A DNA stretch of 64,000 bases from an uncultured Desulfobacterales bacterium (GTDB lineage Bacteria > Desulfobacterota > Desulfobacteria > Desulfobacterales > UBA11574): assembly GCA_937998305.1 (NCBI GenBank), contig CALLDL010000148.1:8839-72838 (forward strand), in the 5' to 3' direction. Shown in pieces: positions 23,054 through 63,754 of the stretch. The notes under the pieces are model-generated. The model saw only the letters and a list, made by a program, of their open reading frames with translations, made no database searches and had not been told where the DNA came from. Each line of letters starts with the position of its first letter. Positions within the stretch are counted from its first letter, which is position 1. The translations under genes were made by a program, and so were the position numbers.

Positions 23054-23255
23054 ACATTTCCAGCTCATAAATAAGGCATTTATTCGATGAGCGAGTTGAG
23101 TCCCTTTATTTTTTTAAATCAGATACGAAATCCCGTTTGTTTAACGGGGACCGCACAAGAGTTTTCATCCGAGGCGTACTTATCGTACGTTGAGGATGGA
23201 AACTTGCGGAGAACGCTGCTCATCGGAAAAAGGGCTATTTATGCACTGGAAACTT
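23054..23255 (+). mobile_element. MITE-like element, family B, copy 1
   Basis: Ends acatttccagctcataaataagg / ctatttatgcactggaaact are inverted repeats related to the family A ends. An internal block of about 80 nt (gagttgagtccctttatttttttaaatcagatacgaaatcccgtttgtttaacgggg) recurs inverted at 34400-34490. Confidence 0.7.
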
Positions 23256-26200: not shown

Positions 26201-26533
26201 TATCTCTTCAGGTATGATAACCCCGCCGCCGCCTCCAAAAATCTTGATATGCGGAACATTTCTTTCTTTCAAAAGGTCGACGATGTATTTAAAGAATTCC
26301 ATATGACCGCCCTGATAACTTGACACCGCAACCGCTTGAACATCTTCCTGGATTGCAGCATCGACGATTTCATGAACAGAGCGGTTATGTCCCAAGTGAA
26401 TGACCTCAACACCGGCATCCTGGAGTATGCGACGCATGATGTTTATGGATACATCATGACCATCAAAAAGGGATGTTGCGGTGACGACTCTGATGGGGTG
26501 TTTGGGATTGTAAGCTTCAACGTCCATCGTCAT
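23255..26533 (-). CDS. icmF: fused isobutyryl-CoA mutase IcmF (B12-binding domain, MeaB-type GTPase, mutase catalytic domain)
   Basis: About 1090 aa. N-terminal B12 domain ([19 protein letters not shown]). G-domain motifs [30 protein letters not shown] and ETAGIGQGD. The mutase domain has RMFAGEG (Phe) and DQGQNTCIF (Gln), where from memory methylmalonyl-CoA mutase has Tyr and Arg. RBS AAGGAGG precedes ATG 26533/26527. The track start at 26548 is a TTG inside the RBS. Confidence 0.88.
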
Positions 26534-26618
26534 GCATCCTCCTTGCAAAATTTAAGATTTTCGATTGAAGATTGACTATTAAAGGTATCTTCCAATTTTA
26601 TTGATAACCGGTTTGGGT

Positions 26619-36662: not shown

Positions 36663-37025
36663 TTAATTGGCGCCTGCTTGCATAGAAAGATGCTGGACCG
36701 AATTCACCAGATCTTCAAGGGGGAAAGGTTTTGTGAAAACAGCATCAAACTGATTTTTCTCGACGAGCCAGGGTGTTCCAGAAAAGCCTATGATCGGAGT
36801 GTACGGTCTATCGGAATTACGGATGTACTTAACAACATCCCGGCCGTCTATTCCTGGCATTAGGATGTCTGTGATGACCAGGTCAGATTGACCGCTATCG
36901 AATTTTTGAATTCCCCTTTGGCCATCCAAGGCAATATCAACCTTAAAACCGGTTCTTGATAATGCCGTCTGAACGACATTCAATATCCCCCTTTCATCTT
37001 TAAAATTCATTTTTTTCTTAAACAT
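36663..37025 (-). CDS. stand-alone response-regulator receiver domain (atypical N-terminus)
   Basis: 120 aa. Phospho-acceptor context DLVITDILMPGIDG, GFSG and the conserved Lys in FTKPF. The usual N-terminal beta1 plus DD pair is reduced to MNFKDE. Confidence 0.7.
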   Translation of the reverse strand: MFKKKMNFKDERGILNVVQTALSRTGFKVDIALDGQRGIQKFDSGQSDLVITDILMPGIDGRDVVKYIRNSDRPYTPIIGFSGTPWLVEKNQFDAVFTKPFPLEDLVNSVQHLSMQAGAN

Positions 37026-49641: not shown

Positions 49642-50607
49642 CTACCCGCCTATAACATGTCTTCGGATATTCAACTCATTAAGATTCATATTGCCGATAT
49701 TTAGATCGTGTCCCAGTTGGATGTATCGGACTTTTTCCGGTTCCATGCCGTACACCTTAGAGGCCGCAGCATCCACCGCCACAATGTCGTTGGATACCAG
49801 CAATGTTTTCTTAAGGGCCACATTTTCCGGAGTGCTTCCCCGGGGACCGAAGCGCTGCATGACCCGATAGGCATCCACGATGTTCAGGTCGGGCTTTTTG
49901 AACAGGCAGAAATCGGCAATGGATTGTTCCAGATCTAAAGAATGATACTTCATTCGATCCCAGACAACGCCCATCAGGTTTTTCATGGCAATACTCTGAT
50001 AGGTGTAGTGATGGTTTTTCAGTATGGGAACATTGATGAATACATCGGCTTCCAGAACCAATTCATGTACCTCGGTAGAGACCAGCGCCTTGGCACCGGG
50101 TATGGTCACCTTCTGGTAGTATTTTTCATTATCACCCGGTGCCACCAGCGCACCCGCAGATTTGGCAGCTTCTCCAATGCCGCTCTCTTTATAGCATTTT
50201 TGTGCCATGCCGTATGAGCTCGAGGCCACGTTATCGAAAACATAGACCTTTTTTGCGCCTGCCCCAAAGCAATGCGCTACGATGGATTTGACCAGCAGCG
50301 GATTGGTCGTGGCGCCGATTTCAGGTTTCCTGGCAAAGCTGATATTGGGTTTGACAAGCACGGTTTGTCCTTTTTTCACGAACTTTTTCATGCCGCCCAT
50401 CATAAAGATGGCCTGATTGAACATGGCATCGGGCTCACCGTTTTTAACAGCCACAAGGTCCGGTGTCCCGGAGGACGCAGCCTTGGCAAATAGTATCTCT
50501 GGCGTGCCCCAGAGAAATGAGCCACCCACGGCAACCCCGGTGGCCAGGCTTTTTTTCAGAAATTCACGCCTTTCTTTGCTGTTTAGTTTATTCATAATAA
50601 CCGGCAC
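49642..50607 (-). CDS. DUF362 domain protein with twin-arginine signal peptide
   Basis: 321 aa. Tat motif SKERREFLKKSLATGVAVGG and DUF362 core QTVLVKPNISFARKPEIGATTNPLLV. Confidence 0.75.
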   Translation of the reverse strand: MPVIMNKLNSKERREFLKKSLATGVAVGGSFLWGTPEILFAKAASSGTPDLVAVKNGEPDAMFNQAIFMMGGMKKFVKKGQTVLVKPNISFARKPEIGATTNPLLVKSIVAHCFGAGAKKVYVFDNVASSSYGMAQKCYKESGIGEAAKSAGALVAPGDNEKYYQKVTIPGAKALVSTEVHELVLEADVFINVPILKNHHYTYQSIAMKNLMGVVWDRMKYHSLDLEQSIADFCLFKKPDLNIVDAYRVMQRFGPRGSTPENVALKKTLLVSNDIVAVDAAASKVYGMEPEKVRYIQLGHDLNIGNMNLNELNIRRHVIGG

Positions 50608-51064
50608 AAAGGATCGCTTTCTCTCCAGGTATCTTAAGGAAGTAGGTAATTTTTAATTTGGGTACGTCAGCTCCGGAAGGCCGATAGTAGTACTGTACCC
50701 ATCCCTTCTTTTTGGTTTTAATCTCTTCAAGAACCTTAGTAAAAGGCTGCTTGCCATCGGCATCTTTATAATTTTTCATGGGAAAACCGATAAATCTGGG
50801 GATAGGATGCGCCAGCAACTTGCCCATATCATCATCCATGCAAAAAACATAAGAGTCCTTCCATTTATATGGGCCGTTCGTATCCTTGAATTTTTCAAGA
50901 GCGGGCTGTATTCCTATTTTCTTAACCAATTTTGCGGCTTCCTCGACTTTTGCCACACATTCCTCTTTGGTGGCCCCCTCTTGCGCAAAACACGGGTTTA
51001 CAAAAGAAAAGACCGCGAGTATCGACAGCATCGAACCCAGAACTTTAATGAACTTTTTCATCAT
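50588..51064 (-). CDS. secreted single-Cache (sCache_2-like) domain protein with no output domain
   Basis: ATG 51064/51061 follows GGGAGGA. Signal peptide MMKKFIKVLGSMLSILAVFSFVNPCFAQ. Cache-like pattern YVFCMDDDMGKLLAHP...GWVQYYYRPSG...KITYFLKIPGEKAILCAGYY. The track start at 51139 is rejected. Confidence 0.65.
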   Translation of the reverse strand: MMKKFIKVLGSMLSILAVFSFVNPCFAQEGATKEECVAKVEEAAKLVKKIGIQPALEKFKDTNGPYKWKDSYVFCMDDDMGKLLAHPIPRFIGFPMKNYKDADGKQPFTKVLEEIKTKKKGWVQYYYRPSGADVPKLKITYFLKIPGEKAILCAGYYE

Positions 51065-51136
51065 ATCCTCCCTATTTTGTTTACGATCAATTGAAGTTTC
51101 ATATTTGATAACATTTGATACCTTTATATAGCCGTT

Positions 51137-51165
51137 CAACTAACTCAGAACTAAATTTGAACTAA
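51137..51165 (-). promoter_or_regulatory. heptamer direct-repeat array a (3 x TTAGTTC/G at 11-bp phasing), candidate SARP-type activator site
   Basis: The gene strand reads TTAGTTC aaat TTAGTTC tgag TTAGTTG, then aacggc, then TATATA (51130-51125). Lies about 70 nt upstream of the sCache gene start. Confidence 0.6.
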
Positions 51166-51438
51166 TTACTGGTGTATAAGGTTTATTTCTTTGATGTTGA
51201 ACAAGGAGATTAGTAGACAACTTTTGAATGTGTTGCGTTTCTCAGACGATGCCTACAACGTCCCTTTTTACAAATTCTTGCAGCATTTCTAAAAAAGTTG
51301 AAGCTGCCTCTTGTAAGACTTTTAACAAGTCTGGACAAAATGCGACAACAAACAAAAAAAGGAACAATATCACCGTAAAAACAAATTTAACTTTAAAAAA
51401 GAAGTTGTCTTTATGAAAAATCCGTATCATGGGTCAGC

Positions 51439-52083
51439 TTATCCAAAAGTATAAGATTTTGTAAAAAAACCAAATACAGGGCTAAAGATCGGCACCAAAA
51501 AATAATTGACAATTCCGATCTGACTTGATCGCTCTAAAAACAACAGTGTCGCCAAAAGATAAGGACTCACCTGGAAAAATGTCTTTTTAAACCTTTTATA
51601 ACGCTCAGGAATAATAGTCGCCGGTATCTTCCCAAGAGCCAGCGGCGGAAATGGTAAGAGATTCGACACGGCCATCATGAGATTAACACCGAGAACGATT
51701 TTGAACATCCTTGAATCAATGGAAAATTGTTCAACAATCAAACAGAAGCTTGATACGATACTGGCAAGAATAAAATTTGCCGCAGGCCCTGAACATTGAA
51801 CGATAACGCTATAGAGCCTTGGGTGTTTGAATTTACTCGTATCGACATCGACATTCCGCGGCCAGCCGAACCCCGCAATAAAAAAGGCGATGGTACCCAG
51901 AATATCAAGATGTCGAAAGGCATTAAAATGAAAGCGGGTCTTATCTGAAGAACGCACATCACCCAAAATTTGAGCCACAAAAGCCTGGGCTTCGGCATTG
52001 ATGGTAACTGAGAAGAGAATCCCCAGGCAAAAGGCAACCAGATAGTCGAGAGTAACATTTTGTAGATCAAGTATGTATGGCAT
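51439..52083 (-). CDS. site-2 protease (M50, COG1994-type) homologue lacking all three zinc ligands (predicted pseudoprotease)
   Basis: 214 aa membrane protein with family landmarks GFGWPRNVDVD, SGPAANFILA and NLLPFPPLALG. HExxH is replaced by AEAQA (nt 51982-51996). The Asp of the PLDG motif is replaced by Ala (PLALG). Confidence 0.7.
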   Translation of the reverse strand: MPYILDLQNVTLDYLVAFCLGILFSVTINAEAQAFVAQILGDVRSSDKTRFHFNAFRHLDILGTIAFFIAGFGWPRNVDVDTSKFKHPRLYSVIVQCSGPAANFILASIVSSFCLIVEQFSIDSRMFKIVLGVNLMMAVSNLLPFPPLALGKIPATIIPERYKRFKKTFFQVSPYLLATLLFLERSSQIGIVNYFLVPIFSPVFGFFTKSYTFG

Positions 52084-52164
52084 TTTTTTGAGAGAGGCGG
52101 AAAGGTGCTTTGCCTTTCCGCCTCTGGCAAATCGAGTTTATTTCAACGTTTTTCATGAAACATT

Positions 52165-53442
52165 CTACTTGACACGGGCATATGCAGGTCTTTTCGTAAT
52201 AAACGCCAGTACAATGGCCACCATAAGGAGTGCTGCCGACAAATAAAAGGCCATGTTGAAACTCCCGGTTGCGTCCCTGATCGTACCGGCAAGTCTTGGC
52301 ATGAACGCTCCAAATCCCCATCCCAGAAACACCAGTCCGTAATTGAACCCCAGGTTCTTGGGACCGTAAAAATCTGCCGTATAAGACGGCATCAACGCCA
52401 ATCCGCCGCCATACTGCCAATAACCGACTCCGGCCAGCAAGAAGAGTAAAAATACACTCTTAGTCGAAATGGCATAGGGAATCAGAAGCATGGCCAAAGC
52501 GGACACACCGCAATTCAGCATATAGGCTTTGTCCCTGCCGAGGATGTCCGAGTATTTGCCAGTACCCACTCGACCGGCTGCATTGACCAGACCGCCGTAG
52601 GAGGCAAGTATCCAGCCGGCCACCAGACCGGTCGCAGCCTTATTCAACAAGCCAGCTGCATTGGTGATGATAAGAATGCCGGACTGGGTACTGAGGATAA
52701 ACATGGCAACCAAGGCATAAAACTGCCAGGTCTTGGTCATCTCACCGGCAGTCCAGTCATTTTGCGTTGCGACCGGTGCCCCAGATTTATCTTGCTCCGA
52801 TTTTACCGGCGCTGGTTCGGGAACATACCCTTCAGGAGGCCAGGCAAGGACCTGGGCGGCAGCACAGATCACGATAAGATACGCAATGCCCAGAACATAG
52901 AAACTGGCCGAAAGGCCCCAGCCGTCAATAATCCATTTTGCCAACGGCGAGACATAAAGTGCCGCACCGCCGTATCCTGCCACAACCAAACCGGCAACCA
53001 GTCCCCGTTTATGGGGGCCAAACCATTTCAAAGCTGCCGGAGTTGGGGCTGCATAGCCGATTCCCATACCAATGCCGCCCCCGATCCCATAACCGATTAT
53101 CAGACCGGTATAACTTTTCATCATGCCGGCTATGATCAGTCCGAGCCCGATGGCGATACCCCCGATACTGGCCGCAATGGTCGGCCCATATTTGTCTTGT
53201 ATCTTCCCGCCGGGAATCATTAACAAGGCAAAAACTAACATACAAAGCGTTACCGGGGAGGATGCCTGGGCGTGTTTTAGTACTTCCCATCCCTGATTAA
53301 TCGGAAGTTCAATGAATTTAGGATCAACAATTCTGACTTTCCATACGCTCCAGGCATATAAGACACCCAGGCATAAATTGATGGTCGTTCCTGCAAATAC
53401 AACTCGCCACGCCTTTGCCGGCGTTTTGCTTACTGTATTCAT
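52165..53442 (-). CDS. MFS transporter, oxalate/formate antiporter (OFA)-like
   Basis: 425 aa with 12 predicted TM helices. N-terminal WRVVFAGTTINLCLGVLYAWSVW is typical of the OFA family. RBS TAGGAGGT. Confidence 0.85.
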   Translation of the reverse strand: MNTVSKTPAKAWRVVFAGTTINLCLGVLYAWSVWKVRIVDPKFIELPINQGWEVLKHAQASSPVTLCMLVFALLMIPGGKIQDKYGPTIAASIGGIAIGLGLIIAGMMKSYTGLIIGYGIGGGIGMGIGYAAPTPAALKWFGPHKRGLVAGLVVAGYGGAALYVSPLAKWIIDGWGLSASFYVLGIAYLIVICAAAQVLAWPPEGYVPEPAPVKSEQDKSGAPVATQNDWTAGEMTKTWQFYALVAMFILSTQSGILIITNAAGLLNKAATGLVAGWILASYGGLVNAAGRVGTGKYSDILGRDKAYMLNCGVSALAMLLIPYAISTKSVFLLFLLAGVGYWQYGGGLALMPSYTADFYGPKNLGFNYGLVFLGWGFGAFMPRLAGTIRDATGSFNMAFYLSAALLMVAIVLAFITKRPAYARVK

Positions 53443-53626
53443 TATTTTACCTCCTAAATATTTTTATGACCTTTTCCTTTTGGTTCCAGTTCAAAATAAT
53501 GGCGTCGAAGCTGAAACATTCCTGCCGAATATCTATCACCCCCCTTCAAAGCAGTTAGAGTTCACCATCGAAATTGGAGCAAATCGGCGTTTCACTGATA
53601 TCCAACGGTTCTCTTTTATAGGATGG

Positions 53627-53655
53627 CAATTAGATCAGAACTAATTTCCGACTAA
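53627..53655 (-). promoter_or_regulatory. heptamer direct-repeat array b
   Basis: The gene strand reads TTAGTCG gaaa TTAGTTC tgat CTAATTG, then ccatcc, then TATAAA (53620-53615). Lies upstream of the MFS gene, with a leader of about 170 nt. Confidence 0.55.
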
Positions 53656-53880
53656 CAATTTCATATGATAGATATATTTTTCTGAAATGATGAAATCGAG
53701 ATCTTTAGGGGGAATGATACAGTTTTTATAGTTGGTGAAATGTGGAAGACTATCAGCTAAAGCAAGGAAAAATTGGATTTGAAGCCATTTCAAAACCTAC
53801 TAGTGAATGTTTTTTTTAAGTCTTTTGCTGAAAAACGCTTAGCGAAACTAAACGAAAATTCCGACAATGGCGAAAAAAAT

Positions 53881-54351
53881 CTACCCTACGATATAGGTTC
53901 CAGTGCCCACGGTGATTAAGACGTCCTGATCGTTATACAGCTCCATGCGTGTTACACTGACTCGTCTGCCGGCCCGCATAATGGAGCCTGTTGCAATAAA
54001 ATATTTCCCTTTGCCCGGTCTCAGATAGTCGATACGAAGATCAATGGTGCCGATTTTTGCCAAACTTTTTCCGATCTCTTCTGCTGTACGTCTTTTCATA
54101 TTCTGAAGAACACCCAAAGAGGCGGTTAACCCCCCGGTGGTGTCCAGAACTGCGGAGATAACACCCCCGTGAAGAATCCCATGAACGTAGTTCCCGACAA
54201 ACGTTTCTTTCATTTCGAACTTTACGCGCACGTCTTCTATATTTAAAGATTCGATCTTAAGTCCCAAAACCTTGTTAAAGGGAATTTTTTGTTCATACAT
54301 TTTACATAGAATTTGCAACCGGTCATCAAGATCTATTTTTTTATCAGACAT
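53881..54351 (-). CDS. hotdog-fold thioesterase (PaaI/YigI-like)
   Basis: ATG 54351 follows GGAG. HGGVISAVLDTTGG motif. The track start at 54399 is rejected. Confidence 0.8.
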   Translation of the reverse strand: MSDKKIDLDDRLQILCKMYEQKIPFNKVLGLKIESLNIEDVRVKFEMKETFVGNYVHGILHGGVISAVLDTTGGLTASLGVLQNMKRRTAEEIGKSLAKIGTIDLRIDYLRPGKGKYFIATGSIMRAGRRVSVTRMELYNDQDVLITVGTGTYIVG

Positions 54352-54404
54352 AATGAAACTCCAATACAATACCCTATTCCGTAAAAAAATCCGGGCCAAA
54401 AAGA

Positions 54405-55076
54405 TTAAAAAGAATCTGTCTGTTGTTTAAGTATCGTCGCTTCCTCCAGGCAAACATTCACACAAAGACCGCAACCATAACACAATTCGAGTTTATAATG
54501 CATCTTTTCTTCTTGCCAGATGCGGGCGTCGAAAAGACATCTGTCGATACATTCTCCGCAAGCCATACATGCCGCCATGTCGGTTACAGCGACATAGCTG
54601 CTGCGGGCGATGAGGTCAGTTCGATCATACAATCTCATCATTTGAAGATCATGGCAGCAGCAATAACAGCAGCTGCAAAACGCATATATTTTGTTGCCGG
54701 GCATGTAAAAAGTCAAATGCACGAGGCCTTTCTCATTTGCATATCGCAAAACATCTTTTGCCTCTTCAAGAGAAACCTTGCGCCCTCGGCCCTTTTCTAT
54801 ATTTTTTACGGCAACATCGTCTAAAAGAAAACAGACTTTCAACGGATTATCACAACGCTTGTAGTGAGTTCTGCATTCGCAATCGGTTAGTGCAATGGTG
54901 TTAGCAGCGCGAAGTATTTCAAGGGCCTGTTCGCTCGGCATGACCCACTGCTTTGCTTCAACCGACTCACGGACTGGAACAACCCTGGATGCATAGGGTA
55001 TCTCACCCGCTTTTAACCAGTTATCATATTTCTCAAGCCTTTTCTCCAAAAACAAGTCTTTGTTGTTCGGTTTCAT
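54405..55076 (-). CDS. Cys-rich 4Fe-4S dicluster domain protein
   Basis: 223 aa. CMACGECIDRC and CYGCGLCVNVC ferredoxin motifs, plus CECRTHYKRC and CSCCYCCCHD cysteine clusters. Confidence 0.75.
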   Translation of the reverse strand: MKPNNKDLFLEKRLEKYDNWLKAGEIPYASRVVPVRESVEAKQWVMPSEQALEILRAANTIALTDCECRTHYKRCDNPLKVCFLLDDVAVKNIEKGRGRKVSLEEAKDVLRYANEKGLVHLTFYMPGNKIYAFCSCCYCCCHDLQMMRLYDRTDLIARSSYVAVTDMAACMACGECIDRCLFDARIWQEEKMHYKLELCYGCGLCVNVCLEEATILKQQTDSF

Positions 55077-55121
55077 TTTTACAACCTTTCAGTGAGAGAT
55101 ATAATTATTAATAAACCCTAA

Positions 55122-55234
55122 CGTTGAAAAAGTCGAGAATGCCTCAGATCCGAGGCGTCATGGGTGAAGCTGTAGTCGTCTACCGCAAGCCCATGATAAC
55201 AAAGGAGATGAGGTATTATCGGCTTTCTCAACGG
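55122..55234. repeat. 113-bp palindromic element (family H)
   Basis: The arms cgttgaaaaagtcgagaatgcctcagatc and gatgaggtattatcggctttctcaacg are inverted repeats over 27 nt with 5 mismatches. The inner hairpin tcatggg...cccatga begins with ccgaggcgt, as in B1. Confidence 0.6.
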
Positions 55235-55447
55235 GTAAATAACACGGCGAATTTAACTCCCTTTTAAAAATGAACCCTATGAAGAATCCAACAAATGGTT
55301 CGGGAACAGCCCAAACTCTCGAATAATAATATTTTTTTCAATGCTCGACGTGTTATTTATGCAACGATAGGGTAAAATATCTGTGAGTAAGGCCGTTCGG
55401 AAAAAAATGCCGATTAAGCTTGATATTGTGAGCAATAAATCCATTTT

Positions 55448-56173
55448 TTATTCCAAAGCTAAATTTGAATGTATCTGTTTTTTTCCGCAAAGAAAAGTAT
55501 CGTTACCGGTCTTTCGCCACATCTTTTTATTCCCGAATTTCAACCATAAGTTTAGGATGAATCGTGACTCATATCTGAACAAAAAGTGCGAGTTAAGATT
55601 AAAAAGCAGTGCCTGGTCAATATCCGGATATAACTCTGCTGGCCCTGCAATTGACTCGGTATACAAAAGCATGTCATTGGTGCCGTTCCAGTCGATTCCC
55701 CAATCCACATTCCTTGGCAAGAAAAACGTATTGTATGTATTATTGTCCAGTGTCGGATCAATTGCAATCCATGTTCCATCTAAATAAATTTCAGTAAAAC
55801 AATGATAAAACGGACTCGAAACCGTCAAATACGCCGCCCCCATAGCAGGCTTCATAAAATCATTTTTCATTGGATTGGCTTTAAAACGCGAAGGAATTTT
55901 GTAATAACGCAACAGTGCTATCAGAAGCAAGTTCTTGTTCCAACAGGCGCCGTAACCTTTCTCTATAGTTTCCGATGCCTTCACTTGCCAGTGATCTCCG
56001 CCGAATATAATCTTGTCTCTGACAAACATAAAAATATTTTTTGTCAGTCCAATGGGATCTTCTGATGCTCGGACAAGATCATCTGCCGCACTTTGAATTA
56101 CTTTATGATTATAATCGCAGAAAAACGTCTCTTTTAAGTGATTTATACTTTTAGGATCACTATTATAACTCAT
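55448..56173 (-). CDS. transglutaminase-like cysteine protease-fold protein
   Basis: ATG 56173 follows AAGGAG. Candidate Cys-His-Asp triad: GYGACWNKN, FYHCFTEIY and IAIDPT. The track start at 56236 overlaps PhzF and is rejected. Confidence 0.8.
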   Translation of the reverse strand: MSYNSDPKSINHLKETFFCDYNHKVIQSAADDLVRASEDPIGLTKNIFMFVRDKIIFGGDHWQVKASETIEKGYGACWNKNLLLIALLRYYKIPSRFKANPMKNDFMKPAMGAAYLTVSSPFYHCFTEIYLDGTWIAIDPTLDNNTYNTFFLPRNVDWGIDWNGTNDMLLYTESIAGPAELYPDIDQALLFNLNSHFLFRYESRFILNLWLKFGNKKMWRKTGNDTFLCGKKQIHSNLALE

Positions 56174-56192
56174 ATTTTCTCCTTTTCGAAAA

Positions 56193-57095
56193 TCAAATCT
56201 CAATTTCCGTTTTGAATGCAATCGTGGCATGCCCACCTACCTGAACCTTAAACGGTTTTCCGTCCTTGACCTCTACAGTAACTGTCACTATTCCTGGTCT
56301 TTTGATAGCTTCCCCCTGTTTTCCCCGAAAAGTAACAGACCCGTCTGATGTCTTTAAAATGTTGTGGTACACCAAATAACCGCCAAGCGGACCATTTGCA
56401 TTTCCTGTAACAGGATCTTCAGGAATGCCTATTGCAGGTGCAAACATTCTGCCATGGGTAAGTATGTCTTTATCATCAGAATCAAAGGTGAAAACGAAAT
56501 AACCATTGCTGCCAATTGCTCTGCTGATATTCGTTAAACGAAGCAGATCAGGTACGAGTGAGTTCAACTTTTCCCTGCTATTTATCCCAACCATGACTTT
56601 TGAGTGCCCGGTGGAGGCAATCTGAATTGGACATCGATCGCTCAAATCAGATTCAGTTAAGTTTAACGCAGATAAGATATCCGATCTATTTTTACCTGTG
56701 ATTTGTGGAAAAATCTCAAATTTCCCCTGTGTCATAATGATTCTGTAATCAGATTTTTCTTTAATAACATCTACTGGTAAAACACCTATTCCAATCTTTT
56801 GAAGAACGGTGCATGTTTGGATTTTGTTTTCGATAGCACGAACAAAATGGGCAGCTATCGTTGCATGGCCACACGTTGGGACTTCGGTTGTAGGTGTAAA
56901 AAAACGTATCCAAACTTCGTGGCCAGATTCTGTTGGGGAAAGGATAAACGCCGTTTCGGAATTATTTAATTCTCGTGCAATTGCTTGCATTTGAGACTCG
57001 TCAAGCCCATCGGCATTCGAAACAACACCGGCAGGATTTCCTTCAAATCGATTTTTTGTAAAAGCATCTATCTGATAAACGCGATAAATATTCAT
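56193..57095 (-). CDS. PhzF-family isomerase
   Basis: 300 aa. N-terminal YQIDAFT...FEGNPAGVV and ELNNSETAFI motifs. The start overlaps the upstream stop by 1 nt (TAATG). Confidence 0.88.
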   Translation of the reverse strand: MNIYRVYQIDAFTKNRFEGNPAGVVSNADGLDESQMQAIARELNNSETAFILSPTESGHEVWIRFFTPTTEVPTCGHATIAAHFVRAIENKIQTCTVLQKIGIGVLPVDVIKEKSDYRIIMTQGKFEIFPQITGKNRSDILSALNLTESDLSDRCPIQIASTGHSKVMVGINSREKLNSLVPDLLRLTNISRAIGSNGYFVFTFDSDDKDILTHGRMFAPAIGIPEDPVTGNANGPLGGYLVYHNILKTSDGSVTFRGKQGEAIKRPGIVTVTVEVKDGKPFKVQVGGHATIAFKTEIEI

Positions 57096-57523
57096 TATTT
57101 TACACGTGAAACCGCCTGAACTTTGAGCATGACCTCACCATATCCCAAACATTCCACACCGACATCCGGACATCTAACGTAACGCATAAAATGAAAATCG
57201 TCGGGTTCATGCCCTTCACTCAATCTTTCATTAATCAGAGCAACAGGTATAATAAGTTGCGAAACCAAATACACACACATTTTATTCGGACAGTGTCTTG
57301 TTATAAAATTACCGTCTATATCCAGGATAAATTTATGGCCTTCTATATGCCCGGCGTTGCAGTGCCTGGACTTTATGACTTCCGCTTCAATAGAATAAAG
57401 AGGCGCTGCCTTGGACACTCGTTTTACATGTCTTATTCGATGCCCTTTTTCAAGAAATTGCGCCATCTCCTTGTCAGAGTATTTCACTCTGCGCCCGAAC
57501 CGTTTAACGACATTCTCAACCAT
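57095..57523 (-). CDS. TIGR04076-like Cys/His-rich small protein (family call from memory)
   Basis: 142 aa. CNAGHIEGHKF, RHCPNKMCVY and VRCPDVGVEC. RBS AAGGAG lies 9 nt upstream. Confidence 0.55.
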   Translation of the reverse strand: MVENVVKRFGRRVKYSDKEMAQFLEKGHRIRHVKRVSKAAPLYSIEAEVIKSRHCNAGHIEGHKFILDIDGNFITRHCPNKMCVYLVSQLIIPVALINERLSEGHEPDDFHFMRYVRCPDVGVECLGYGEVMLKVQAVSRVK

Positions 57524-57525
57524 AG

Positions 57526-57714
57526 TTATTTCTCCTTTTTATACCAGTCGGCCCGGGGAACGGCTCTGGGTACTTGCCATTTATTACCAGCGTTGCCATC
57601 AATTTCGTCAAATGCTTTTCTAAAGGCCGGAAACCGCATCCATATTTGATATTTTGTAATTTGATCAGCATATTTGTACTTTTCCAGAATCTCTGCTTCT
57701 GCTTTTATTTGCAT
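57526..57714 (-). CDS. possible small protein (62 aa)
   Basis: An ATG ORF that ends 2 nt before the next gene's start. Its last codons contain that gene's RBS. It has no convincing RBS of its own and I recognise no family. Confidence 0.3.
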   Translation of the reverse strand: MQIKAEAEILEKYKYADQITKYQIWMRFPAFRKAFDEIDGNAGNKWQVPRAVPRADWYKKEK

Positions 57715-57862
57715 GTTTTTCAGAATATTCTTCTAAAAAGACCGGTCGGAATCTTTAACAGAACGTTCAAACCTGAAATCACAGCAAGCATTTCCCCATC
57801 CCAATGTTTTTGTTCTTTTATATTCAATGTCTGTTTGTTGAAAATAATCCGGATAAAAAGCA

Positions 57863-58651
57863 TCAGCCGATCAATATCAGTCCGCAAACCGTTTCCATGG
57901 AAACCGCATCAGGATCGACATCCCGTGGAGTTTTGTTCGACATCCAGCCGGCCACCTTCTTTAACTTGAGTACGTTGATTCCAAAACCGGACATGGACGG
58001 CCGAGCGAAAAGTGGATTCCGGCATTCGCCATTTTCCGCTAAAACCCGGCAGTCGGAATGATCCCGGCAAAAAATCTGTTTGCAGGAGCCGCCTGCATAG
58101 GCGTTTGAATCTCGAAGCCCCATCTCTATAGCCAACTGTTCGATATTTGCGGCAATTTCATGAAGCAACTGGAATATGTCACGGCGTTCGTTTGAAAGAA
58201 GGATTTCCGAAGGCACATCGATTTTAAAAACTACTGCATGTTTAAAGGTTTTCAGTAATTTTCGAAATCCGGCCGGTCCTGCAACATGAGGGGGACAACC
58301 GGCCGACAAACCGTGGTTTTCACATCGAGGTTCTTGACACAGTTTCGCCAAATCTTCTTCAACTGAGATTTCGGTTGTAGGAATAGCTCTGGCATCGCTT
58401 GCGCCCAATTGACATGCGAGTTGCGTCAGTTCTTTCAGCACTGACCGTACACTATGCCCTGGTGGCTTTTTCTCTGCCATTTTTAACGCTTTGTCATTCC
58501 AAAATACCCTTTTACAGGATGTACACCTGCCATTAATTTCATCTGTCCATATCTCAACTTCCATTCCGCAATCGGGGCAGATATACAACTCCGGTACAGC
58601 CCTTGAAACAGGGTCATTGCCCGGGCATTTGAAATAAAGTTTAGTTCCCAT
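57863..58651 (-). CDS. zinc-ribbon plus DUF2284 metal-binding protein
   Basis: 262 aa. N-terminal CPDCG...CTSC ribbon. DUF2284-like CQEPRCENHGLSAGCPPH and later Cys clusters. Overlaps the upstream gene by 11 nt. Confidence 0.7.
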   Translation of the reverse strand: MGTKLYFKCPGNDPVSRAVPELYICPDCGMEVEIWTDEINGRCTSCKRVFWNDKALKMAEKKPPGHSVRSVLKELTQLACQLGASDARAIPTTEISVEEDLAKLCQEPRCENHGLSAGCPPHVAGPAGFRKLLKTFKHAVVFKIDVPSEILLSNERRDIFQLLHEIAANIEQLAIEMGLRDSNAYAGGSCKQIFCRDHSDCRVLAENGECRNPLFARPSMSGFGINVLKLKKVAGWMSNKTPRDVDPDAVSMETVCGLILIG

Positions 58652-59342
58652 CGTTTTTTCTCTGATTTAGCCAAATCATCACAGGCTCGATCCAAATATC
58701 TTCCGGCTGAAAAAAGAGCTTGTGTCCTTTATCGCTCTTTAATGTTACTTCCTTATTCGAGATACCAATTATTGCCTTTGAAAATACCTTGTGGCAACTG
58801 CTCGCTATTAAATCTGATGATGCATAGATAGACAGAAAGTCGCCTTTAAGCTGGGTAAAGTCCGGATAAGCTGGTGCAAGCGGTTTGATTTCACAACCCG
58901 CCATTACGATGTAACCGATTTTCGGGTTTCCCAGCTGAGAAGCCACGCAAAGGGTTATAACACCCCCCTTGGAATGTCCTGCGATGGTAATGCGTTCCGG
59001 CGAGACACCGGCGCCCAGAAGTCTCTTGACTTGGCGGACTATTTTTTTTGCATATTCTGAAGGAACAATTTTACCGGACCGAACTTCGCTGATTACTCTA
59101 AAGCCTTTGTCTGCAAAGGATTTCACAATATCATGATACTTGCAGTCGCCGTTGGGACCATGCTTTTCTACATAATAATTATGCAAAAAGAACAAATAAT
59201 GGACGGATCGATCAATGGTGGACGGCATTTCATAAGACACTTGCTCTGCATATAGGTTCGATGCAAAACTAAGCACCAAGAACCCAAGTATCATAGACTT
59301 GAGAAATGTGTTGATATTATTGACCCTAATTGGTCGTTTCAT
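58641..59342 (-). CDS. secreted alpha/beta hydrolase
   Basis: ATG 59342 follows GGAG with a 6-nt spacer. Signal peptide ...GFLVLSFASNLYAEQ and nucleophile elbow IAGHSKGG. The track start at 59510 is rejected. Confidence 0.7.
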   Translation of the reverse strand: MKRPIRVNNINTFLKSMILGFLVLSFASNLYAEQVSYEMPSTIDRSVHYLFFLHNYYVEKHGPNGDCKYHDIVKSFADKGFRVISEVRSGKIVPSEYAKKIVRQVKRLLGAGVSPERITIAGHSKGGVITLCVASQLGNPKIGYIVMAGCEIKPLAPAYPDFTQLKGDFLSIYASSDLIASSCHKVFSKAIIGISNKEVTLKSDKGHKLFFQPEDIWIEPVMIWLNQRKNDGN

Positions 59343-59604
59343 TTTCATCTCCTCTCCCATTGAGGCGTCCCTGAATGATGTATACATAATTTTCCTGTTT
59401 GCCCTTTTACCTCGTAACTTGTAACCACCTATATAGTATAGTTTTACAAAGCTCTCTGCTAAACAAACGACAAATCCAATTGTGTACCTATTGATGACAA
59501 CTTCAGACATACATTTATGTGATGAACCTTAAACTTTTTATATTTTTCAGGACAATAGAGCATCTTGAGTGAAAGAGAGTAGATATAGTTTATAAATATG
59601 AAAC

Positions 59605-59940
59605 CTAAAAGACATGAGTTTTAAAAGGAAACGGAAAAATATTGGTATCTCCGTTTTTTGCTCCCGATGCCCGATGGGTTTGTGTATTGGCATACCATTT
59701 TCTTTTGCTCATTTGAAAAAAAGCGTTGGAAAGAGCCACTATGCAGACCTTTCCTCTAGATGAAACACGAAAGGTTTCACCGCCTTTTAATATTCTTTCA
59801 CCCCTTTTTGGCCAGGTTATCCAAAGGGCGCCATATAAACAATGGATCTGAATATCTTTTCCTATGACAGAAAATAGTTGATTTTCTGTCAACTTAATTG
59901 TTGCTTTTTCAACGCCTTTAAATAAAGAAGTTAGTTTCAT
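59605..59940 (-). CDS. DUF2917-like small protein (family call from memory)
   Basis: 111 aa. GALWITWPKRGERILKGGETF resembles the DUF2917 core. It is the first gene after heptamer-repeat promoter c. Confidence 0.45.
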   Translation of the reverse strand: MKLTSLFKGVEKATIKLTENQLFSVIGKDIQIHCLYGALWITWPKRGERILKGGETFRVSSRGKVCIVALSNAFFQMSKRKWYANTQTHRASGAKNGDTNIFPFPFKTHVF

Positions 59941-59995
59941 ATCAACCGCTTTTATTTAAATAAATTGTGCTATGTACACATTTTTTACGGATCAA

Positions 59996-60024
59996 TGATT
60001 AATTTAGAACTAATTGGGGACTAA
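59996..60024 (-). promoter_or_regulatory. heptamer direct-repeat array c
   Basis: The gene strand reads TTAGTCC ccaa TTAGTTC taaa TTAATCA, followed by an AT-rich CGTAAAAAA. Lies about 55 nt upstream of the DUF2917-like gene start. Confidence 0.5.
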
Positions 60025-60201: not shown

Positions 60202-60996
60202 TCAAACAAGTTTTATCGCTTCAATCATCCCCGATGTTACAACGTCTTCAAGATTTTTTCCTTTGGCGCAATCATTTCCGCTGCCATCATTTAATTGTAT
60301 TTTAATTTTATAAAAACCTGCCTCCTTTAGCATTTTCTTTAGATCATCAATATAGACTGCACCTGCGACACAACCCACATAAAGCGATAAATCCTTTTTA
60401 ATTTTTTCAGGCAGAGGCGCTGTGGCAATCATATCGGAAACGGTAAAACGTCCGCCGGGTTTTAAAACTCGAAACGCTTCAGCAAACACTCTGGGCTTGT
60501 CAGGAGAAAGATTAATAACACAATTGGAAATTATCACGTCTACAGATGCATCAGCCACCGGTAGATTCTCAATCTCTCCCAATCGAAATTCAATATTTTT
60601 ATACCCGTATTTTATTGCGTCATTACGGGCTTTTCTCAACATCTCCGGCGTCATATCCACCCCAATGACATGTCCGGTGTTCCCCACTTTTTTAGCCGCA
60701 AGAAAGCAATCCATACCGCCCCCGCTTCCCAAATCGAGGACGGTTTCTCCAAATTTAATCACCGCTATTGCACACGGGTTTCCGCAACCGAGCCCCATCA
60801 GGGATTCTACAGGAATATTTGAAATTTCCTGTTCAGAATATCTAAAGATCTCATGATTTTTTGATGGGGCCGGTAAAGGTTTTGTTTCACAGCAGGAGGA
60901 CGCTGTCGAATAACAACCGGGTTTCTTTTGTATAGCTATCTCAGCATAGTGCCGACGTACTTCCTGTATTATTTCATCGTTTTGGATATGTTTCAT
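60202..60996 (-). CDS. ArsM-like SAM-dependent methyltransferase
   Basis: ATG 60996 follows AAGGGGG. SAM motif VLDLGSGGGMDCFLAAKKVG, an N-terminal Cys pair (SSCCETK) and VIISNCVINL. The shared ECF-type promoter lies inside the longer track ORF, so the start at 61077 is rejected. Confidence 0.8.
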   Translation of the reverse strand: MKHIQNDEIIQEVRRHYAEIAIQKKPGCYSTASSCCETKPLPAPSKNHEIFRYSEQEISNIPVESLMGLGCGNPCAIAVIKFGETVLDLGSGGGMDCFLAAKKVGNTGHVIGVDMTPEMLRKARNDAIKYGYKNIEFRLGEIENLPVADASVDVIISNCVINLSPDKPRVFAEAFRVLKPGGRFTVSDMIATAPLPEKIKKDLSLYVGCVAGAVYIDDLKKMLKEAGFYKIKIQLNDGSGNDCAKGKNLEDVVTSGMIEAIKLV

Positions 60997-61034
60997 GATG
61001 CCCCCTTTTAATTCGAATTGTGCTCTTTTATTAA

Positions 61035-61063
61035 TAGACGAAGATTTTTTGTAAAGGACGCAA
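61035..61063 (-). promoter_or_regulatory. ECF-type promoter TTGCGTCC-N15-CGTCTAT upstream of the arsM-like gene
   Basis: The gene strand reads TTGCGTCC tttacaaaaaatctt CGTCTATTAAT. The -10 element ends 38 nt before ATG 60996. The same two boxes with the same spacer length occur at 61829-61857. Confidence 0.65.
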
Positions 61064-61264
61064 CATCTTTCGGACATTTACCTGGATTTTGCACGAGCTT
61101 GAGGCTTTCATATGCAAGTATCTGACAACATGACAAATAAACATCTATGGCTTGCCCGAAAGGTGAAAATATTTAAGTAAAACGAGTCAATTCATTGGGT
61201 GACAAGGTGTGACTTTGAAAAATTAGTCGGTAGTAAAGCCTTGTTATAAAGCGACGGGATTTAA

Positions 61265-61810
61265 TCAACCATTCGTAGAAGATTGTTCTTTAGGTTCATA
61301 ATCGATTATTTTTCCGAACCTATCCAATTCAAAATGACAGCATTCCGTCAACATATTTTTGAGTTTTTCTCTGGCTCTTTGTGACCTGGATTTGGCTCCT
61401 GAAAGAGATAATCCGAGCTTTTCTCCCATCTTTTTCTGGGTTAATCCTTGATATGTTGTTAGAATAACCGCTTGACGGTACTTCTCAGGCAGCCGGTCAA
61501 CCATAGCCTCAATACATGGAAGTACATCAACATCATCGTTAATATCAGAATTTTCTAAACTCGTTATTGTTTCCGGAAGCTCTGCCGTGGTCTTTTGGCT
61601 TCGATAATAATCAATAATTGCATGTCGAGCAATTTGATATATCCAGCCACGCAGCCTGCGGATATCTTTAAGAGTGTCTATTCGAGAATGAATCTTAACA
61701 AATACTTCCTGAAGAATATCGTCAGCAATACTTTCGTCTGAAGTGCGTTTCAGGATAAACTGTCTGAGATTAGCGCTGAATTCTCTCCATATATTTTCTA
61801 TGCTGGTCAT
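61265..61810 (-). CDS. ECF sigma-70 factor, SigZ-type with Cys-containing C-terminal extension
   Basis: 181 aa. Region 2 (DILQEVFVKIH...RGWIYQIARHAIIDYYR) and region 4 (LTQKKMGEKLGLSLSGAKSRSQRAREKL), then TECCHFELDRFGKIIDYEP. Confidence 0.85.
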   Translation of the reverse strand: MTSIENIWREFSANLRQFILKRTSDESIADDILQEVFVKIHSRIDTLKDIRRLRGWIYQIARHAIIDYYRSQKTTAELPETITSLENSDINDDVDVLPCIEAMVDRLPEKYRQAVILTTYQGLTQKKMGEKLGLSLSGAKSRSQRAREKLKNMLTECCHFELDRFGKIIDYEPKEQSSTNG

Positions 61811-61828
61811 TCGCTTTTCCTTTATATA

Positions 61829-61857
61829 TAGACGAATTTTCCTTGAAAAGGACGCAA
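61829..61857 (-). promoter_or_regulatory. ECF-type promoter TTGCGTCC-N15-CGTCTAT upstream of the sigma factor gene (autoregulatory)
   Basis: The gene strand reads TTGCGTCC ttttcaaggaaaatt CGTCTATATAT. It ends 18 nt before the sigma gene ATG (61810). CGTC in the -10 is the hallmark of ECF promoters. Confidence 0.65.
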
Positions 61858-61991
61858 AACAAGTTGTACTTTTTGTTGTCTTCAGGGCAGTTTAACGTCT
61901 TACCCAGGACTTGATATAGCATCCTTCAGTACAATGCGCCACTCTGGGCAGCATAAATCGCGTCACAATCATCACCCCCTTATCATTATCT

Positions 61992-62261
61992 TCATTCGAG
62001 TCTTTTGCAAACCTCCCGGTATTGGTTGAACACCCTGCCAGAGGAAACAGCCATAACAATCGCCTGGATCGTACCCAGTTCTGCTTCTGAAACGCCTTTA
62101 TCTGCGGCGACACCGGTAAGCTTTTCCATACACGGATAACAACCTACGGCCATTGCTGCGCCCATTTCAATCATAAATGTCGTTTTGGGATCTATAACAT
62201 CATTTGATATTATGGACTTATGAAAATCAATAAAACTCTTTTTCAAGTTCTCGGGGATCAT
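61992..62261 (-). CDS. carboxymuconolactone decarboxylase (AhpD-like) family protein
   Basis: 89 aa. FIDFHKSI...DPKTTFMIEMGAAMAVGCYPCMEK, including the CxxC motif. Confidence 0.75.
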   Translation of the reverse strand: MIPENLKKSFIDFHKSIISNDVIDPKTTFMIEMGAAMAVGCYPCMEKLTGVAADKGVSEAELGTIQAIVMAVSSGRVFNQYREVCKRLE

Positions 62262-62688
62262 TACACTCTCCTTTCATTAACCTAAATTGATCGTTTCAAG
62301 TAGTGACAAAACAATAAAAAACCTTATTACCTTAAATCATTACATAACATTTATACTATTATAGGTTCTCACCTGTTAGGTGTAGATTCGCTTGCCTAAA
62401 AAGTCACGATTTGAAACCTTTGGGCTTGCCGATTTTATCAAATCTGCTGCGTTATGAGATATTTGCGGTAGCATACTACAGCTGCATATCTCAATGCCTT
62501 GCATCTTCACCAAACTCGGCAATCGCTCAATTTAGGAATTGGTTACGGGTTTTTGTTGTTGGGTTCATGAACCATACATAGGCTTGACTTTTATTGCCTA
62601 TCGGTATATTCGAATACAAAATATTAGATATCGAGTCAAACGATTTGTTTCGATCGAACCGATCGGAATTAGTGAACGGAGGGAAAAA

Positions 62689-63591
62689 ATGGAAATTCGT
62701 CAGCTTAAAACCTTTCGAACCGTGGCCCAATTGCTGAGCTTTAAACAAGCCGCCCAACATCTTCACTATGCCCAATCCAGCATATCCGCGCAAATTCAGG
62801 CTTTGGAAGAAGAACTGGGCGTACAGCTATTTGACCGCTTGGGAAGAGGCATTTTGCTGACCGAAGCCGGGGTCAGCCTGATGAACTATGCTGAAAAAAT
62901 ATTGGATCTGGCTGATGAAACCCGAACTGAAGTGGCTGCCGCCAAAGAGCTGAAAGGTTCGTTGACCATCAAAGTACCCGAAACTTTTGGCGTTCATCGG
63001 TTGCCGCTTGTTATCAAGCAGTTTCGGTCTCGTTTTCCAAAGGTCCGATTACATTTCACCACCTGTACCCATGAAGGCCTTCAGAAAGACCTTAGAAAAG
63101 GCGTCACCGATCTGGCATTTTTGCTGACAGAGTCGTTTCAGGCTGCCGACCTTGAAGCTGAAGCCTTAGGTGTCGAAACGTTGATACTGGTGGCCCACCC
63201 CGACCACCCGTTGATAAATGAACCAGTGGTTCACACTAAAGATCTTAAAGGTGAAACTCTACTTTTTTCAAAGGTGGATTGCAGTTACAGGAGAACAGTA
63301 GAAGCAGCGTTTAAGATGGAAAAAATTCGATATGATAACACACTCGAATTTAACAGCGTGGAAGCAATCAAACAGTGCGTCATGGCCGGTGTAGGCATTA
63401 GCATCCTCCCCGAAATTACCGTAGCAAAAGATATTTCCAAGGGACGTCTGGCCGCTCTACCCTGGGATGAAGGAGCACTGGAAGTTGCCGCCTTAATGAT
63501 ATGGTACAAAGACCGGTGGCTTTCTCCAACCTTGAGTGCTTTTATGGAGACTGTCAGGAAAGTGTTGACAAAGGCACACGACTTAAACTGA
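62689..63591 (+). CDS. LysR-family transcriptional regulator
   Basis: ATG 62689 follows GGAGGG. HTH segment MEIRQLKTFRTVAQLLSFKQAAQHLHYAQSSISAQIQALEEELG. The track start at 62539 is rejected. Confidence 0.88.
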   Translation: MEIRQLKTFRTVAQLLSFKQAAQHLHYAQSSISAQIQALEEELGVQLFDRLGRGILLTEAGVSLMNYAEKILDLADETRTEVAAAKELKGSLTIKVPETFGVHRLPLVIKQFRSRFPKVRLHFTTCTHEGLQKDLRKGVTDLAFLLTESFQAADLEAEALGVETLILVAHPDHPLINEPVVHTKDLKGETLLFSKVDCSYRRTVEAAFKMEKIRYDNTLEFNSVEAIKQCVMAGVGISILPEITVAKDISKGRLAALPWDEGALEVAALMIWYKDRWLSPTLSAFMETVRKVLTKAHDLN

Positions 63592-63754
63592 ATGATTAGT
63601 TTTATGATAGTTCAAGAAAAAACAATCCTACCCCCCAAATGGGTGATGTTTTTTTATTCTTAATAGGATAAGTATATTTATTATTTTATTCAAAACCTTA
63701 TAATGCACTTGGGTGCGATCAATTTGTATCTGTCAGATTGCCGAGGGGTAAAAT

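Follow-up and report, generated by a model that had tools for sequence, protein, structure and literature searches.

The question raised by this locus is which protein reads the short direct repeats that are found at three of its promoter regions. The stretch analysed here (the window) comprises 64,000 nucleotides of contig CALLDL010000148.1, assigned to an uncultured Desulfobacterales bacterium, and all positions without a locus prefix refer to it. The original prediction, made from the letters of the window, had described three arrays of heptamers and had linked them to a 918-aa protein encoded at 44384-47140. Our analysis makes it highly probable that the arrays are the binding sites of this protein, in which TPR, STAND and SARP modules are combined and which we will call the regulator. 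The arrays are given below, together with their scores in a 44-bp weight matrix that was built solely from eight sites of other genomes (the external matrix).

51137-51165, minus strand: array a, TTAGTTC-aaat-TTAGTTC-tgag-TTAGTTG, 32.0 bits with the external matrix
53627-53655, minus strand: array b, TTAGTCG-gaaa-TTAGTTC-tgat-CTAATTG, 28.7 bits with the external matrix
59996-60024, minus strand: array c, TTAGTCC-ccaa-TTAGTTC-taaa-TTAATCA, 32.8 bits with the external matrix

The predicted sequences, strand and coordinates of the three arrays agreed letter for letter with the window when they were re-read, and the heptamer starts are indeed spaced by exactly 11 bp in all of them. The arrays consist of TTAGTYN heptamers in exact 11-bp phasing, are intergenic and have the same orientation as the genes that follow. 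The third repeat, which had been described as the degenerate one, is so in the window; some relatives have a weak first repeat instead. The heptamer TTAGTTC is not enriched in the window by itself (six occurrences versus 7.8 expected), and four of the six fall inside the arrays; it is therefore the phased arrangement that constitutes the signal. The pattern TTAGT-N6-TTAGTTC has three exact matches in the window and five with at most one mismatch, against 0.21 expected, and none of 100 shuffled sequences reached five. With the external matrix, the best match in the window off the arrays scored 6.5 bits and the maximum over 50 shuffles was 9.9. Since scoring by identity over the three heptamers does not discriminate arrays b and c (scores of 16-17 are also found in shuffles), the statistics are carried by the phased dimer pattern and the external matrix. 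There are exactly three array-quality sites in the 64 kb. A one-mismatch match at 63596-63613 (plus strand), located after a LysR gene, is not among the weight-matrix matches and was set aside as a chance occurrence.

If the arrays are binding sites of the regulator, they should be found with its relatives in other genomes. Related loci (designated L001 and so on) were retrieved by exact look-up, a metagenome scan and a genome scan, the last of which gave no relative among genome contigs with the single regulator sequence as query and succeeded with an alignment; all homologues of the regulator come from metagenomes. Over the first 321 kb of these loci the strict pattern TTAG[TC]-N6-TTAG[TC] had 28 matches in 18 arrays, every one of them intergenic, on the regulator's strand and oriented with the next gene. 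A scan with a relaxed pattern, covering ~0.39 Mb of family loci, detected arrays in almost every locus having enough flank, no match in 110 kb of control loci with distant SARPs (22-31% identity, some of them from actinobacterial metagenome-assembled genomes, MAGs) and none elsewhere in the window. A search free of motif bias, for any 5-mer with three copies in 11-bp phase, returned only these arrays and a single array of GGCTTAA. Altogether, more than 20 arrays with exact 11-bp phasing were found in related loci, some with four repeats. They recur, always intergenic and nearly always on the regulator's strand, beside family regulators of 40-99% identity (33-43% for weaker candidates), and further arrays come from MAGs named Syntrophobacteraceae, Desulfobacterium and 'delta proteobacterium'. 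The esterase locus of the cultured Desulfospira joergensenii, identified through a homologue of an esterase of the window, has a borderline array only (L048:10771).

Alignment of the orthologous promoters showed the conservation that had been anticipated. Array a is present in four loci (L001, L004, L016 and L017), where spacers and flanks have changed around invariant heptamers. Array b has an orthologue at L017:577, and arrays precede the same pair of genes, coding for an MFS transporter and an M50-like protein, in six loci (L003, L010, L011, L013, L014 and L047) with regulators 52-53% identical and a rearranged gene order. Equivalents of array c lie before the esterase gene in the syntenic L050 (9897; esterase 71% identical) and in L047 (4682). 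Other genes are preceded by arrays as well: L010 has additional ones before a DUF362 gene and directly before a TPR-TPR gene pair, and L003 and L013 have one before a CBAH hydrolase. In a sister class of the regulator, with proteins of 1100 aa, the array is found ~30-300 bp past the regulator stop codon and precedes SBP_bac_5 (four loci), MMPL, MFS or PEMT-like genes. Because the array-controlled genes vary between the two classes, the constant partner of the motif is the regulator family and no one target gene. This co-occurrence, with orthologous as well as unrelated genes downstream, lends support to the link between regulator and sites, which had been proposed from the window alone.

The GGCTTAA array (three repeats in exact 11-bp phase, L028:9822-9850, plus strand) lies ~150 bp upstream of a gene for an 1118-aa STAND-BTAD regulator that is 43% identical to that of the window. 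The recognition helix reads KSSQRFHVALAAVRK in the L028 protein versus KTAKRFHVALASLRK in the window regulator. L028 may represent a diverged specificity together with autoregulation, and this one diverged case is suggestive of a recognition helix that co-varies with the repeat sequence. As a separate observation, array b and the L010 array before DUF362 (L010:14219-14260) have in common an identical 18-mer, TTAGTCGGAAATTAGTTC, in which the spacer is included, and also a downstream AACCGnTnGAT, yet they are followed by different genes. Judging from these letters, the two sites seem to reflect the transfer or reuse of an entire promoter module.

The position of the arrays relative to the promoter is a further line of evidence. 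The original prediction had placed an AT-rich -10-like hexamer 6-8 nt after each array; such an element is present, but its position is better set by an invariant TA located 8 bp downstream of the last repeat. The candidate -10 elements are as follows.

51123-51128, minus strand: candidate -10 of promoter a, TATAAA, its TA 8 bp after the third heptamer
53613-53618, minus strand: candidate -10 of promoter b, TAAAAG, with the overlapping TATAAA at 53615-53620 as alternative register
59982-59987, minus strand: candidate -10 of promoter c, TAAAAA, its TA 8 bp after the third heptamer

When non-redundant arrays were aligned on their last repeat, the TA (T38/A39) was found exactly 8 bp past the third heptamer in 11 of 11. 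It is also found at that position in 24 of the 31 non-redundant matches of the relaxed scan, against a background of 4.5%, and the exceptions are mostly mis-registered or reverse-strand echoes of true arrays. A scan with the sigma-70 consensus gave no -35/-10 pair for arrays a, b or c, so that the claimed absence of a -35 element was upheld. With the TA taken as -12/-11, the first heptamer would extend from about -49 to -43, the middle one from about -38 to -32 and the third from -27 to -21; the middle heptamer, which is the best conserved, would occupy the usual position of the -35 hexamer, and the second and third repeat units together would span about -38 to -17. The AfsR box spans -40 to -19, and the promoter rule described for SARPs is a phasing of 11 bp and a distance of 8 bp between the 3' repeat and the -10 (PMC10936776). 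Three-heptamer sites that overlap the -35 region are found with ActII-ORF4 and DnrI (PMC10972967). The geometry predicted for the array promoters, with the -10 assigned from the sequence alone, matches this published rule. We have also considered the element past the last repeat as an extra degenerate heptamer (TTTGTAC-like), and discarded it: it has no invariant A3 and carries an invariant A6 that never occurs in the repeats. A different short repeat, GTATCAA-atgt-TATCAAA (51090-51125, minus strand), follows closely after the candidate -10 of promoter a and is kept in L001, L004, L016 and L017; it could act as an additional operator or belong to the 5' end of the transcript.

What, then, is the protein? 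The regulator is composed of a signal peptide, TPR repeats (residues ~20-190), a predicted membrane helix (~205-225), a MalT-like STAND NTPase (241-614), a linker and a C-terminal SARP region (~661-910). For the last of these, the BTAD was identified by Pfam at residues 767-908 (E = 3.6e-17). The Pfam model of the winged helix, Trans_reg_C, gave no score on the regulator even at E <= 10, and the assignment of the winged helix therefore relies on a profile, a structure model and a weak match to the NCBIfam AfsR model (residues 655-866, E = 5.1e-5, far below the cut-off of that model). A profile of the C-terminal 270 residues is collinear with AfsR (8hvr_I) over both sub-domains (AfsR 20-249, E = 2.6e-4) and also matches EmbR. 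A search of the PDB with the single C-terminal sequence had retrieved just a spurious TPR-like match to BUB1, and the profile was required. The AlphaFold2 model of residues 651-918 (pLDDT 91.5) has the OmpR-type topology, with a beta-sheet, three helices and a wing hairpin, and further helices after it. Its top six PDB matches by Foldseek are AfsR, in the transcription complex, and EmbR (E = 3e-9 to 1e-7 over ~260 columns), with TM scores of 0.69-0.72 for AfsR and 0.66-0.73 for all six. In the model, residues 651-918 have the SARP fold, and the C-terminal SARP domain named in the original prediction is thus backed by the BTAD, the profile and the predicted structure. It is the sole SARP-type or OmpR-type winged helix among the annotated open reading frames (ORFs) of the window, as had been stated; the other DNA-binding proteins are a TetR, two HTH_3-cupin proteins, a LysR and a SigZ-like extracytoplasmic function (ECF) sigma factor, and the sole receiver protein (36663-37025) has no DNA-binding domain. 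In AfsR the contacts with the DNA backbone are made by W74, P79, R94 and K95, and bases are read by T88 and R92 (PMC10936776). The four backbone-contact residues are conserved in the profile alignment with the regulator, and the two base-reading ones are replaced by V and S, a change that fits a different target sequence.

Residues 241-614 match the NCBIfam MalT model with E = 4.6e-64. The score, 216.9 bits, is far below the equivalog cut-off of 537 bits, and this NTPase module must therefore be described as MalT-like and not as MalT. Walker A (G279, G281, K282) and Walker B (D369/D370) residues are invariant among 24 orthologues, and WHD_MalT (PF25873) appears in the precomputed annotation of the identical protein and of homologues. 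Pfam gave no match to GerE/LuxR, TPR_MalT or Response_reg over the 918 aa of the regulator, and the 1100-aa sister class carries TPR_MalT.

The N-terminal part points to the cell envelope. The first 227 residues are 46% identical to a 238-aa TPR protein encoded by the adjoining gene, and both paralogues have an N-terminal signal peptide of Sec type (AQA|QD) and, at ~205-225, a hydrophobic helix (Kyte-Doolittle 2.14) with a K/R-rich sequence after it. In the class of ~900-aa proteins to which the regulator belongs, this helix reaches the cut-off of 1.6 in 23 of 24 orthologues, with N-termini that are likewise signal-peptide-like. The 1100-aa class has neither the membrane helix nor a hydrophobic N-terminus, and starts at the equivalent of residue ~238. 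In the full-length AlphaFold2 model, TPR repeats (25-190), an isolated helix flanked by disorder (205-223), the NOD (257-597), a disordered linker and the SARP region (671-909) can be distinguished. The ~900-aa regulator is thus probably membrane-anchored, with an exported TPR domain, a feature that the original prediction had overlooked. A side observation is that the predicted regulon encodes, in the 238-aa TPR protein, a look-alike of the regulator's own sensor.

Several points speak against assigning the arrays to the regulator in this way, and they have to be set beside the evidence given above. The external sites had themselves been collected with the pattern TTAG[TC]-N6-TTAG[TC], and the independent columns of the matrix are therefore restricted to the third repeat, the spacers and the TA. 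The register of the -10 is ambiguous, with a TG that often abuts the TA (TGTA), one base off the classical extended -10; the hexamers are weak, and a T is present at their last position in a minority of sites. The full-length model is only moderate (pLDDT 66.8). An activator tethered to the membrane has to draw its promoters to it. The co-localization of arrays and regulators is correlative; within the window 13 kb separate the regulator from array c, and the equivalent of array c in L050 has no family regulator within 10 kb.

The situation in L050 would fit arrays that are bound by another reader of direct repeats encoded outside the window, such as an OmpR/PhoB response regulator, with the STAND-SARP gene as a mere neighbour or target. 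Sites made of direct repeats are indeed common to the whole OmpR/PhoB class of winged helices. We regard this as improbable: the arrays follow the STAND-SARP family over three gene contexts and two protein architectures, often right after its stop codon, whereas the genes downstream vary; no gene for a response regulator with receiver and winged helix is present in the window or among the listed genes of the related loci; and the distance of 8 bp between repeat and -10 is the one in the SARP rule. Binding by the SARP protein with a different outcome is another alternative, in which it would act chiefly as a repressor, or as a dual regulator, by occluding the promoter. The arrays do overlap the core promoter, and GSU1771, a REC-SARP of Geobacter, is reported to repress some promoters and activate others (PMC10599522). 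This we consider unlikely too, because the array promoters lack a -35 and the fixed 8-bp register to an invariant TA is expected of an activator positioned to RNA polymerase, whereas repression needs none; the BTAD and the AfsR-like fold also point to activation.

The remaining two alternatives do without the regulator. TTAGTTC-N17-TAnnnn could be read as the -35 and -10 of another sigma factor, such as the SigZ-like ECF protein (61265-61810), since its gene is 1.2 kb upstream of array c, the synteny of sigma, methyltransferase and esterase genes is found again in L050, and the spacing between the middle heptamer and the -10-like element is constant. We have rejected this reading as very improbable. 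It leaves the in-phase repeats on either side and the four-repeat arrays unexplained, the motif does not have the usual AAC / CGT signature of ECF promoters, there is no array upstream of the sigma gene itself, and no sigma gene was found near the arrays where genes are listed (L001, L003, L004, L047 and the array flanks of L010 and L022). Chance similarity or non-functional repeat debris, to which the lack of enrichment of the lone TTAGTTC might point, is excluded for practical purposes by the phased pattern (5 versus 0.21 expected), by matrix scores of 29-33 bits against a shuffle maximum of 9.9 and by the conservation of strictly intergenic, co-oriented arrays over genomes in which spacers and flanks diverge.

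Taking the regulator as the protein that binds the arrays, the following mechanism can be proposed. Each 11-bp unit, a heptamer (consensus TTAGTYC) plus a 4-bp spacer, would be read by the winged helix of one SARP domain, and three units (four in some relatives) would line up adjacent protomers along one DNA face. Once bound, these SARP domains would replace the missing -35 and dock region 4 of sigma and the alpha subunit's C-terminal domain, as in the AfsR complex, and RNA polymerase would thus be recruited to a weak TAnnnn -10 element. The STAND NTPase presumably gates this activity and, in the ~900-aa class, would be coupled through the single membrane helix to an exported TPR domain that senses a periplasmic cue. 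There would be three outputs: the operon of sCache, DUF362, polyferredoxin and TPR-paralogue genes, possibly reading into the regulator gene; the MFS/M50-like pair; and the string of esterase, DUF2284, PhzF, transglutaminase-like and thioesterase genes. TPR paralogues within the regulon may feed back on sensing. Going further, and more tentatively, the ~900-aa proteins might constitute a so far undescribed one-component device, in which a membrane-tethered STAND NTPase would oligomerize to line up its C-terminal SARP domains on three or four heptamers, with an AfsR-like 'sigma adaptation' working on a Gram-negative RNA polymerase and the TPR paralogues as possible decoys or co-receptors.

A way to appreciate what is unusual in this arrangement is to compare it with systems already known. 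The best structural match, AfsR of Streptomyces coelicolor (a 'large' SARP; PDB 8hvr, 8k60, 8jke), has the same winged helix and BTA fold, and like the window regulator carries a STAND NTPase and TPR repeats in addition to its SARP domain. The promoters are alike in their 11-bp direct-repeat units over the -35 position, the lack of a good -35 and the 3' repeat located 8 bp from the -10. The order of the modules differs, being SARP-NOD-TPR in the cytoplasmic AfsR and TPR-membrane helix-NOD-SARP in the window regulator, predicted to be membrane-anchored, and sequence identity is only ~16%. AfsR recognizes two repeats of another sequence with other base-reading residues, whereas the sites of the window are TTAGTYC in three or four repeats. 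The hosts differ too: here it is a Gram-negative Desulfobacteraceae without the RbpA/CarD context. Genes for BamA, TamB and an OEP outer-membrane efflux protein are present in the window, and the partners of its proteins in 90%-identity clusters are named Desulfobacteraceae or Desulfobacterales (Syntrophobacteraceae are found as well among the farther relatives of the regulator), from which the host is a MAG of Gram-negative Desulfobacterota and not an actinobacterium. The 'small' SARPs (ActII-ORF4, DnrI) consist of the SARP part alone (~270 aa) and belong to actinobacterial antibiotic clusters; their three-heptamer sites are alike, but the SARP domain of the window is the output of a 918-aa sensor protein, with transport, redox and hydrolase genes as targets.

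Outside the SARPs, the pho boxes bound by PhoB are direct repeats of 7 bp, separated by 4 bp, and take the place of the -35, and ToxR and CadC are membrane-anchored one-component activators in which a winged helix is combined with a periplasmic sensor. Compared with PhoB, the window regulator has no receiver domain, and its winged helix is followed by a BTAD. Unlike ToxR and CadC, it has the winged helix at the C-terminus instead of the N-terminus, and a STAND NTPase is inserted between the membrane and the DNA-binding domain. MalT of Escherichia coli has a similar NTPase-WHD module and is a signal-gated, presumably oligomerization-dependent activator with repeated sites; it is a cytoplasmic protein, senses through its C-terminal part and has a terminal helix-turn-helix of the LuxR type, whereas the window regulator ends in a SARP domain and is predicted to have a membrane helix and, at its N-terminus, an exported TPR domain. 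A non-actinobacterial ('deltaproteobacterial') case is GSU1771 of Geobacter sulfurreducens, which also has a C-terminal winged helix and SARP-type activator domain; its input is a receiver domain instead of TPR/STAND, and the likeness noted is at the level of the domain family. Binding of GSU1771 to promoters has been described by electrophoretic mobility shift assay, with no repeat consensus or promoter geometry defined (PMC10599522).

SARPs have been described in reviews as exclusive to actinobacteria and tied to antibiotic gene clusters (PMC10972967). The window regulator departs from the usual marks of the family, an actinobacterial host and an N-terminal SARP domain, and databases already label these regulator proteins 'SARP family' or 'BTAD domain-containing'. 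What appears to be new is a defined and conserved operator grammar of SARP type, with its predicted regulon, in Desulfobacterota; a reversed, MalT-like architecture in which the output is a C-terminal SARP domain; and a variant predicted to be membrane-anchored, with an exported TPR domain. The locus suggests that the SARP promoter grammar works in uncultivated relatives of sulfate reducers from sediments and, if this is true, that MalT-like STAND sensors, one form of them probably membrane-anchored, can use a SARP domain as their output. The consensus (TTAGTYC-N4 three or four times, then N8-TA), together with the predicted target set, would allow targets to be annotated for several hundred 'BTAD domain-containing' proteins in MAGs of Desulfobacterota and Spirochaetota, and a regulon of organisms without genetics becomes testable in vitro or in a heterologous host. 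No long-standing question is resolved by this, and the mechanism would be one borrowed from AfsR.

The genes that follow the arrays, and that would form the predicted regulon, are listed below. Most of the labels given to them in the original prediction were confirmed by Pfam and NCBIfam; DUF2917 for 59605-59940 is below threshold (E = 0.014).

50588-51064, minus strand: sCache_2 protein with signal peptide (Pfam), first gene after array a
49642-50607, minus strand: DUF362 protein (Pfam, E = 2.6e-48); a DUF362 gene follows an array also in L010 and L011
48107-49636, minus strand: polyferredoxin, Fer4_5 / Fer4 (Pfam), syntenic in L001 and L004
47309-48025, minus strand: 238-aa TPR protein with signal peptide and C-terminal membrane anchor, paralogue of the regulator N-terminus
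44384-47140, minus strand: 918-aa regulator, at the end of operon a
52165-53442, minus strand: MFS transporter (Pfam), after array b and a leader of ~185 nt
51439-52083, minus strand: 214-aa membrane protein, weakly M50-peptidase-like (Pfam, E = 5.8e-5, below the gathering score)
53881-59940, minus strand: gene string after array c (Pfam), with synteny in L050

In operon a, the listed start of the sCache gene, a TTG at 51139, overlaps array a and was replaced by the conserved ATG at 51061/51064, which comes after a GGAGG ribosome-binding site and gives a protein of ~157-159 aa. No terminator-like sites were seen in the gaps of 81 and 168 bp upstream of the regulator gene, so positive autoregulation of the regulator is possible; the 168-bp gap also contains the sigma-70-like elements TTGACC-N17-TAATAA. 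In loci of the L010 type the regulator is located upstream of the arrays, and autoregulation is therefore not conserved. The MFS/M50-like pair after array b is kept in L003, L010 and L047. Its leader, from array b to the MFS start codon (53443-53626, minus strand), is well conserved in L017, and a scan of 43000-64000 against Rfam, including this long 5' region, gave no match. The equivalent gap in L003 and L010 contains a called small ORF of 49-92 aa.

The string after array c is composed of a 111-aa ORF, an esterase-like alpha/beta hydrolase, DUF2284, a 142-aa ORF, PhzF, a transglutaminase-like and a 4Fe-4S protein, and finally a thioesterase of the 4HBT type. It is interrupted by gaps of 340 and 372 bp, and a terminator-like hairpin is found past it at 53836-53854. 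The esterase-like ORF (58641-59510, minus strand) is listed with 289 aa and its homologues have 227-234 aa, for which reason the real protein probably has ~230 aa. A block of LysR, CMD-like, SigZ-like ECF sigma and SAM methyltransferase genes adjoins the array-c operon both in the window (60202-63591) and in L050 (6499-9483).

In several relatives (including L003, L013 and L040), array-controlled or neighbouring genes code for CBAH amidases, neutral ceramidase, aminotransferases and acetyltransferases, which hints at a regulon concerned with an amide-linked lipid or peptide compound. A TetR gene is located directly upstream of the regulator in several relatives. Far from the arrays, the window also contains a gene (23255-26548, minus strand) for a 1097-aa protein in which a B12-binding domain is fused to a MeaB-like GTPase and a methylmalonyl-CoA-mutase domain (IcmF-like), with acyl-CoA dehydrogenase, thiolase, enoyl-CoA hydratase and carboxyltransferase genes as neighbours.

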